Shown: positions 5,491 through 5,595 of the stretch, one piece after another
Layout of the letters: every line of letters starts with the position of its first letter
Position numbering within the stretch: position 1 is the stretch's first letter
DNA from: Escherichia coli O157:H7
GTDB taxonomy: Bacteria; Pseudomonadota; Gammaproteobacteria; Enterobacterales; Enterobacteriaceae
Length of the DNA stretch: 64,000 nucleotides
Strand: one strand, 5' to 3'
Assembly (NCBI RefSeq): GCF_013167455.1
Contig: NZ_CP038328.1
Program-made: the position numbers and the translations under genes
Notes under the pieces: generated by a model
What the model saw: only the letters and a program-made list of their open reading frames with translations
Database searches by the model: none
Told to the model about the DNA's origin: nothing

Positions 5491-5595
5491 GCCGGATGCG
5501 ATGCTGACGCATCTTATCCAGCCTACAGAACGCTGCAATTTATTGAATTTGCACGATCATGTAGGCCGGATAAGGCGTTTACGCCGCATCCGGCA
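5491..5595. repeat. BIME: two REP palindromic units in inverted orientation
   Basis: GCCGGATGCGATGCTGACGCATCTTATCCAGCCTAC at 5491..5526 and inverted partner GTAGGCCGGATAAGGCGTTTACGCCGCATCCGGCA at 5561..5595, in the aslA-aslB convergent intergenic region. Confidence 0.8.

Follow-up and report, generated by a model that had tools for sequence, protein, structure and literature searches.

Catalogues of the REP and BIME elements of E. coli date back to the 1980s and 1990s. About 600 REP copies are present in each genome of this species (PMC3333891). A BIME-1 consists of one z1 and one y REP, is single-copy and has a long, conserved L linker in which an IHF site is frequently present; BIME-2 elements combine z2 and y REPs with short linkers in tandem arrays (PMC3333891). 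Atypical BIMEs are chimeras of y, z1 and z2 units with L, S, s, l or r linkers, and are described in multiple tandem copies (PMC3333891). REPINs are REP doublets that form hairpins and are mobilised by RAYT/TnpA-REP, and the E. coli RAYT gene is located between yafL and fhiA, outside the region studied here (PMC3333891).

REPs have been characterised both as partial terminators and as stabilisers (bioRxiv 10.64898/2026.03.23.713779). The family has been described as a barrier to 3′-to-5′ exonucleases, as a cause of partial termination that depends in part on Rho, and as raising expression where a convergent gene pair has a REP in its gap; a REP is present in about 30% of the gaps between convergent genes (bioRxiv 10.64898/2026.03.23.713779).

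We analysed a stretch of 64,000 nucleotides from the E. coli O157:H7 contig NZ_CP038328.1 (assembly GCF_013167455.1), which we call the window and whose positions are used throughout. Within the gap between its convergent genes aslA and aslB, we found an element that is highly likely to be a single-copy atypical BIME, made up of a y and a y-like REP and an L linker with an IHF-type site, and presumably having the functions of its family. It is an ordinary copy of an already known repeat, E. coli's commonest intergenic repeat. For annotation purposes, the region should be treated as a REP/BIME repeat; it is neither a gene nor an sRNA, nor is it a novel regulatory element.

The aslA-aslB locus

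The 501 bases around the BIME are 100% identical to E. coli O157:H7 chromosomes. On the left is the arylsulfatase gene aslA (3807-5462, + strand), which is present both in the list of open reading frames (ORFs) and in the RefSeq annotation of the 100%-identical O157:H7 PV15-279 record. On the right, the O157:H7 RefSeq annotation places aslB, encoding an anaerobic sulfatase maturase, at 5630-6865 on the - strand; the ORF list has a longer, TTG-start version (5630-6895). The two genes converge on an intergenic gap of 167 bp. REP1, the left unit of the element, begins 28 nt after the aslA stop codon, which places the BIME in the aslA 3′ untranslated region. K-12 MG1655 has the same arrangement of aslA and aslB, with a gap of 158 bp, and the same element is also found at its aslA-aslB locus. 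No repeat feature is listed between aslB and aslA in the K-12 RefSeq annotation, and our search for literature on a REP at aslA/aslB returned no relevant paper.

Structure of the element

REP1 occupies positions 5491-5526 (+ strand) and is a y-like unit of 36 nt, GCCGGATGCGATGCTGACGCATCTTATCCAGCCTAC. It matches the y profile (described below) over its full length and has CTAC at its 3′ end (5523-5526). Its apical stem is longer, ATGC-TGAC-GCAT, and one position of the stem is degraded, reading CCAG where CCGG is expected. REP2 occupies positions 5561-5594 and is a canonical y-type unit of 34 nt, GTAGGCCGGATAAGGCGTTTACGCCGCATCCGGC, with GTAG at 5561-5564; given on the + strand, its classical consensus reads on the - strand. 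The two REPs are inverted and tail to tail, with CTAC on the left of the linker and GTAG on the right.

The linker between them (5527-5560) is the 34-nt sequence AGAACGCTGCAATTTATTGAATTTGCACGATCAT, which corresponds to the L motif of BIME-1 by the identity of its core to BIME-1 linkers elsewhere. This core, TGCAATTTATTGAATTTGCA (5534-5553), is palindromic and is identical in canonical BIME-1 linkers at about 90 other loci. Because both REP heads are y-type, the element ends in a perfect inverted repeat of 12 nt. A repeat search found its left arm, TTGCCGGATGCG, at 5489-5500, where it forms the outer stem of REP1, and its right arm, CGCATCCGGCAA, at 5585-5596; the arms are 100% complementary.

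Both units have the properties by which REPs are recognised, in that each is an imperfect palindrome of 30-40 nt with internal mismatches and a GTAG/CTAC foot. They are also extragenic and belong to a sequence with many copies per genome: a 501-bp query around the BIME matches at least 5-49 places per E. coli genome. The element itself is single, comprising one doublet with no additional unit within 5400-5700. The preliminary description of this region had reported two opposite REPs at 5491-5595, separated by a 34-bp linker and located between aslA and aslB, at the 3′ ends of these convergent genes. The sequence and the repeat search agree with these coordinates and this length, and the annotation of the identical O157:H7 record agrees with the gene arrangement.

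Similarity to BIMEs at other loci

A scan for the linker core TGCAATNNATTGAATTTGCA, in which each species was represented by a single genome, gave 139 matches outside the window. In 92 of the 139, the core lies in the canonical BIME-1 layout, with TGCCTGATGCGCTACGCTTATCAGGCCTAC (z1), a linker of 33-36 nt and GTAGGCCGGATAAGGCGTTCACGCCGCATCCGGC (y). Of about 90 copies, 22 have a linker of 34 nt. These 92 copies occur in Escherichia and Pseudocitrobacter genomes, and on a small number of short contigs whose assemblies carry the names of unrelated taxa. A further 26 are not flanked by a REP; nearly all of these come from unrelated phyla, and we discarded the 26 as chance matches.

Two side observations arose from the canonical copies. 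Complete BIME-1 elements were found on contigs of 261-3,920 bp, three of them shorter than 1 kb, in assemblies labelled Desulfosporosinus, Alkalicoccobacillus, Methylobacterium and Collinsella. Contamination of these four assemblies with E. coli-like DNA is the most likely explanation. In Escherichia sp. MOD1-EC7003, there are tandem arrays of 4-7 z1-L-y units, spaced by 107, 162 or about 115-230 nt, in contrast to the description of BIME-1 as single-copy only.

We built HMM profiles from the 92 BIME-1 copies, all at other loci and with the aslA-aslB locus left out, and used them to search the window. The whole-element profile matches 5491-5594 with E=5e-22 (73.5 bits) over model positions 2-98 of 98, which places the element among the BIMEs. 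The preliminary description had identified the units as REPs, and formal alignment bears this out: REP2 matches the y profile with E=4.3e-13 (45 bits) and REP1 matches the same profile, over its full length, with E=1.8e-4. REP2 also agrees at 33 of 34 positions with the y consensus, a level reached in none of 100 shuffles. The doublet is far beyond what is expected by chance and is a genuine REP pair. Near-identical copies of the REP1 subtype number 1-6 per genome (median 3), one of them being the single REP between gppA and rep described below, and in the L-core scan a unit of this type adjoins an L core at the aslA-aslB locus only.

Comparison with described classes of BIME

The element shares many properties with BIME-1. 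It is single-copy, its REPs are tail to tail, it has the conserved L linker of about 34 nt whose core (TGCAAT..ATTGAATTTGCA) includes an IHF-type site, its right unit is a canonical y, and it is found at gene 3′ ends. However, the left unit is y-like, with the head GCCGGATG and a length of 36 nt, where BIME-1 has z1. We also considered REP1 as a possible z1 unit. This assignment was ruled out, since REP1 aligns to the y model and the z1 profile yields no match at 5491-5526 (E<=10), even though the same profile detects a z1 REP at another position in the window.

A second difference concerns the flanking A and B motifs, here AGACTGATGACAAACGCAAAA and TGAACAAAGCGCACTTTG, which belong to BIME-1 in the Bachellier/Gilson scheme. 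At least one of them is present in most of the 92 canonical copies and both are present in 38, but neither flanks the aslA-aslB element. Given that the z1 partner and the A and B motifs are both missing, we classify the element, going by its sequence, as y-L-y, an atypical BIME whose linker is that of BIME-1, and not as a BIME-1. It resembles the atypical class in its non-canonical combination of units and linker, although tandem multiples are described for that class and the aslA-aslB element is a single doublet.

The relationship to BIME-2, including REP325, the source of naRNA4, is more distant: both have a y REP unit, but the aslA-aslB element has an L linker and not S, is single-copy and lacks a z-type head. 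The preliminary description had called the element a typical BIME, which is accurate for the L linker and the y REP, but not for the partner, which is y-like and not z1, or for the A and B motifs, which are absent. Its mention of binding by IHF and gyrase merges two classes. The L linker is the carrier of the IHF site, and cleavage by gyrase is a property of BIME-2, a class to which this element does not belong, and should not be presumed for it.

Alleles in E. coli and related genomes

A comparison among strains had been proposed in the preliminary description, and we carried it out with 5426 complete E. coli genomes. The query was 301 bp centred on the BIME, and coverage of at least 80% was counted as an intact doublet. 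The doublet is intact in 2259 of the 5426 genomes (41.6%), so about 58% of them lack the element or have an altered form of it. It is thus dispensable and mutable across strains.

A single deletion junction is common to 1729 of the 5426 genomes (31.9%), including ATCC 8739 and HS. This deletion joins aslA nucleotide ~139 (window 3945) to window position 5525, removing 1.58 kb of aslA together with REP1 and retaining the linker and the y REP. Its junction runs from ...CCAGTATC to ACAGAACGC, with breakpoints at 3945/3946 and 5524/5525, the right one being located in the CCTAC tail of REP1.

Collapsed forms with a single hairpin account for about 25% of an evenly spaced sample of 60 rows. Two types can be distinguished in this sample. 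In about 15%, as in strain 1002W03, a deletion runs from the CGCATC direct repeat of REP1 to that of REP2. In about 10%, exemplified by strain P15-25, a single y REP remains in the opposite orientation; this allele corresponds to a flipped form of the element that has collapsed between ATCCGGC repeats.

The flipped form itself, a reversal of the entire BIME at its site with the terminal inverted repeats as end points, occurs in 59 of the 5426 genomes (1.1%). These 59 are counted within the 2259 intact genomes; one flipped genome covered the query fully, at 85% identity. Compared with the window element, the flipped form matches at 101 of 109 positions as the reverse complement and at 87 of 114 directly. 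The flip is always accompanied by a difference of 9-10 nt in the flank on the aslA side. A flipped BIME is also found in strain E69 and in E. whittamii, and its ends are shared with the window form. Taken together, these alignments make an inversion in place well supported. Escherichia sp. E1V33 has an element at this locus in the window orientation. The comparison indicates that either the two orientations are both of long standing or lineages have exchanged them. Every full allele that we examined has the same L core.

The aslA/aslB gap therefore has at least five allelic states, namely intact, flipped, two collapsed hairpins, and half-deleted together with aslA. Polymorphism driven by BIMEs is already known (PMC3333891), and the locus is a compact example of REP doublets creating structural polymorphism. 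The allelic series could act as a small natural test bed for the effects of REPs on the expression of convergent genes.

Origin of the rearrangements

Several properties of the aslA-aslB element recall REPINs. Its REPs fold into one long hairpin, it varies between strains in presence, absence and orientation, and one deletion endpoint coincides with GCC|TAC, the site that TnpA-REP cleaves in vitro (PMC3333891). The rearrangements at this locus are also explicable by ordinary mechanisms: the collapses and the flip can be accounted for by short-repeat recombination or by template switching in a quasi-palindrome, without a dedicated enzyme.

It is also conceivable, though in our judgement rather unlikely, that the aslA-BIME alleles record activity of TnpA-REP (RAYT) that goes beyond passive decay. 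This reading draws on the in-place flip, on the flank change that co-occurs with it and on the breakpoints of the aslA deletion. Both breakpoints of the deletion fall at C|T, the dinucleotide cleaved by TnpA-REP, and the right one is inside GCC|TAC. Their position is suggestive of a TnpA-REP origin for this deletion. However, the junction reads C at a position where T is present in both parental sequences. One simple RAYT reaction of cutting and joining therefore does not fit the deletion exactly. A search of the literature for BIME inversion found nothing. If the alleles do reflect RAYT activity, REP doublets would be driving in-situ inversion and the loss of neighbouring genes in wild populations.

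Folding, IHF site and possible functions

The individual REP hairpins have predicted energies of -15 to -21 kcal/mol on either strand (z -3.3 to -4.8). The RNA hairpin of REP1 has energies of -15.3 (+ strand) and -19.8 kcal/mol (- strand), and that of REP2 about -21 kcal/mol (z about -4.7). When the whole gap is folded, the minimum free energy structure pairs REP1 with REP2, at -76 kcal/mol on the aslA strand (z -6.3) and -85 kcal/mol on the aslB strand (z -7.0). Either strand is thus predicted to fold as two REP hairpins or as one long hairpin of about 110 nt.

The linker contains a predicted IHF site, ATTCAATAAATTG (5536-5548, - strand), with 1 mismatch to WATCAANNNNTTR. Sites with at most one mismatch occur about 0.03 times per 34 bp in the window. 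Such a site is in keeping with the L linkers of other loci, and IHF may bind here. The genes aslA and aslB do not appear in the genome-wide IHF literature that we searched, comprising ChIP-seq text, GeF-seq text and GeF-seq supplements. In the supplements of the REP papers, they appear in expression tables only, with no usable entry for the locus.

Downstream of the BIME, folding reveals a terminator-like hairpin on the + strand (5605-5627) followed by a T6 run (5626-5631), the whole (5605-5631) overlapping the aslB stop codon. In O157, this hairpin is imperfect as a result of a G>A change at 5610 and has an energy of -7.9 kcal/mol. Most other alleles have a perfect GCGGCCA/TGGCCGC stem (-15.1 kcal/mol), and in K-12, Nissle and E. 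whittamii the hairpin is gone via a 10-nt deletion. An aslA transcript that reaches this hairpin would hold the BIME in its 3′UTR. An aslB transcript, on the other hand, would have to read through the complementary hairpin beside its own stop codon before it met the BIME.

By analogy with REPs elsewhere, the published roles of the family are most likely to be the effects of the element at aslA-aslB. The RNA hairpins would slow 3′-to-5′ exonucleases and partly stop transcription, and in this way the REPs might modestly raise or insulate the expression of convergent aslA and aslB. At the DNA level, the linker could be bound and bent by IHF. The element may have arrived and been reshaped through the REP-associated tyrosine transposase (TnpA-REP/RAYT) and through recombination among the short repeats that it contains. 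Both IHF binding and the stabilisation of upstream mRNA had been put forward in the preliminary description, and we infer that they apply here as properties carried over from the family. The missing z1 partner, the weakened stem of REP1 in O157 (CCAG) and the lack of a U-tract at either REP hairpin are points against this reading.

Alternative explanations

The element could be a genuine REP doublet that is nonetheless a neutral or selfish passenger, with no function specific to this locus, residing in a safe gap between weakly expressed convergent genes. We regard this as quite possible, if somewhat short of probable. The fact that only about 42% of complete E. coli genomes keep the element intact argues against a strongly selected local function, and in the others it has repeatedly been collapsed, flipped or half-deleted. 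The neighbouring terminator hairpin is polymorphic too, and read counts for aslA and aslB are low in K-12 RNA-seq tables (baseMean about 298 and 171, respectively). By contrast, a mere passenger does not readily explain why the element has persisted for so long, as judged from its presence at the locus in Escherichia sp. E1V33 and, flipped, in E. whittamii and E69, nor why the L core is constant in every full allele examined. Strong hairpins on both strands could instead be the stems of a bidirectional intrinsic terminator serving aslA and aslB, and 78 REPs have been located within predicted bidirectional terminators between convergent genes (bioRxiv 10.64898/2026.03.23.713779). However, neither REP hairpin is followed by a U-run (T-run in the DNA), and a consensus promoter and terminator scan of 5350-5750 found nothing, so we do not class the REP hairpins as intrinsic terminators. 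Moreover, the T6 hairpin at 5605-5631 is a separate structure, and on the aslB strand the BIME is located beyond it. We therefore think it distinctly unlikely that the REPs themselves are the terminator.

Matches to Rfam models raise the question of whether the element is a small-RNA gene like naRNA4/CssrE or ES036/CssrF. The naRNA4 model (RF02564) scores 42.4 bits on REP2, and the minus strand of the linker is identical, at 22 of 22 nucleotides, to positions 7-28 of the ES036/CssrF consensus (RF02751), with a score of 30 bits. Yet these scores are below the gathering scores of 59.5 and 37.6, respectively, REP1 is likewise sub-threshold for naRNA4, and only the first hairpin of the 77-nt naRNA4 model is matched. 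At the gathering threshold, the Rfam scan reported no family in the BIME region. Both models appear to be built on REP or BIME sequence, so that the matches restate membership in the repeat, for which they are independent support, and the scan of 5350-5750 found no promoter-like site. An sRNA gene is accordingly very improbable. Matches of the region to microRNA families in Rfam were rejected as artefacts of the long palindrome. The chance that the palindromes are coincidental, or that the region is coding, is negligible. An ORF at 5489-5725 (78 aa, TTG start) is present in the mechanically generated list, but it has no Pfam match, starts inside REP1 and runs antisense through the 3′ end of aslB, and coincidence is opposed by profile E-values down to 5e-22. 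The reading that we prefer thus remains that of a single-copy atypical BIME.

Other REPs and RNA features in the window

Two single REPs are located elsewhere in the window. The preliminary description mentioned a third REP between gppA and rep at 27311..27345; it is present, but its coordinates are 27314-27349 (+ strand). This y-like unit is of the REP1 subtype, matches the y profile only marginally (E=0.074) and fills the 46-bp gap between the convergent genes. Its hairpin is predicted at -18.7 / -20.2 kcal/mol. In a fuzzy match, it differs from REP1 by 4 substitutions, and its tail is degenerate, ending in CCTTG where REP1 has CCTAC, so the GTAG/CTAC foot is lacking. The fourth REP of the window, which was missing from the preliminary description, is a single z1-type unit between the convergent genes ilvA and ilvY (33096-33125, - strand). 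It matches the z1 profile over its full length with E=2.3e-7.

In the tRNA cluster at 7005-7450 (- strand), tRNA-Leu(CAG) plus a copy of tRNA-Pro(UGG) is duplicated in tandem. Identity between the copies extends over about 200 nt, after which they diverge. The inner tRNA-Pro copy (7240-7314) has no normal 3′ acceptor end and scores 34.6 bits in Rfam, compared with 65.8 bits; it is unannotated in the RefSeq O157 record. Both tRNA-Leu(CAG) and tRNA-Pro(UGG) are single copies in K-12.

Further RNA features reach the Rfam gathering threshold, all on the - strand: the GlmZ sRNA (3176-3382), the trxA 5′UTR thermometer (24259-24358), the Rev39 5′UTR element (39471-39760) and a complete rRNA operon with its tRNAs (42982-48204).
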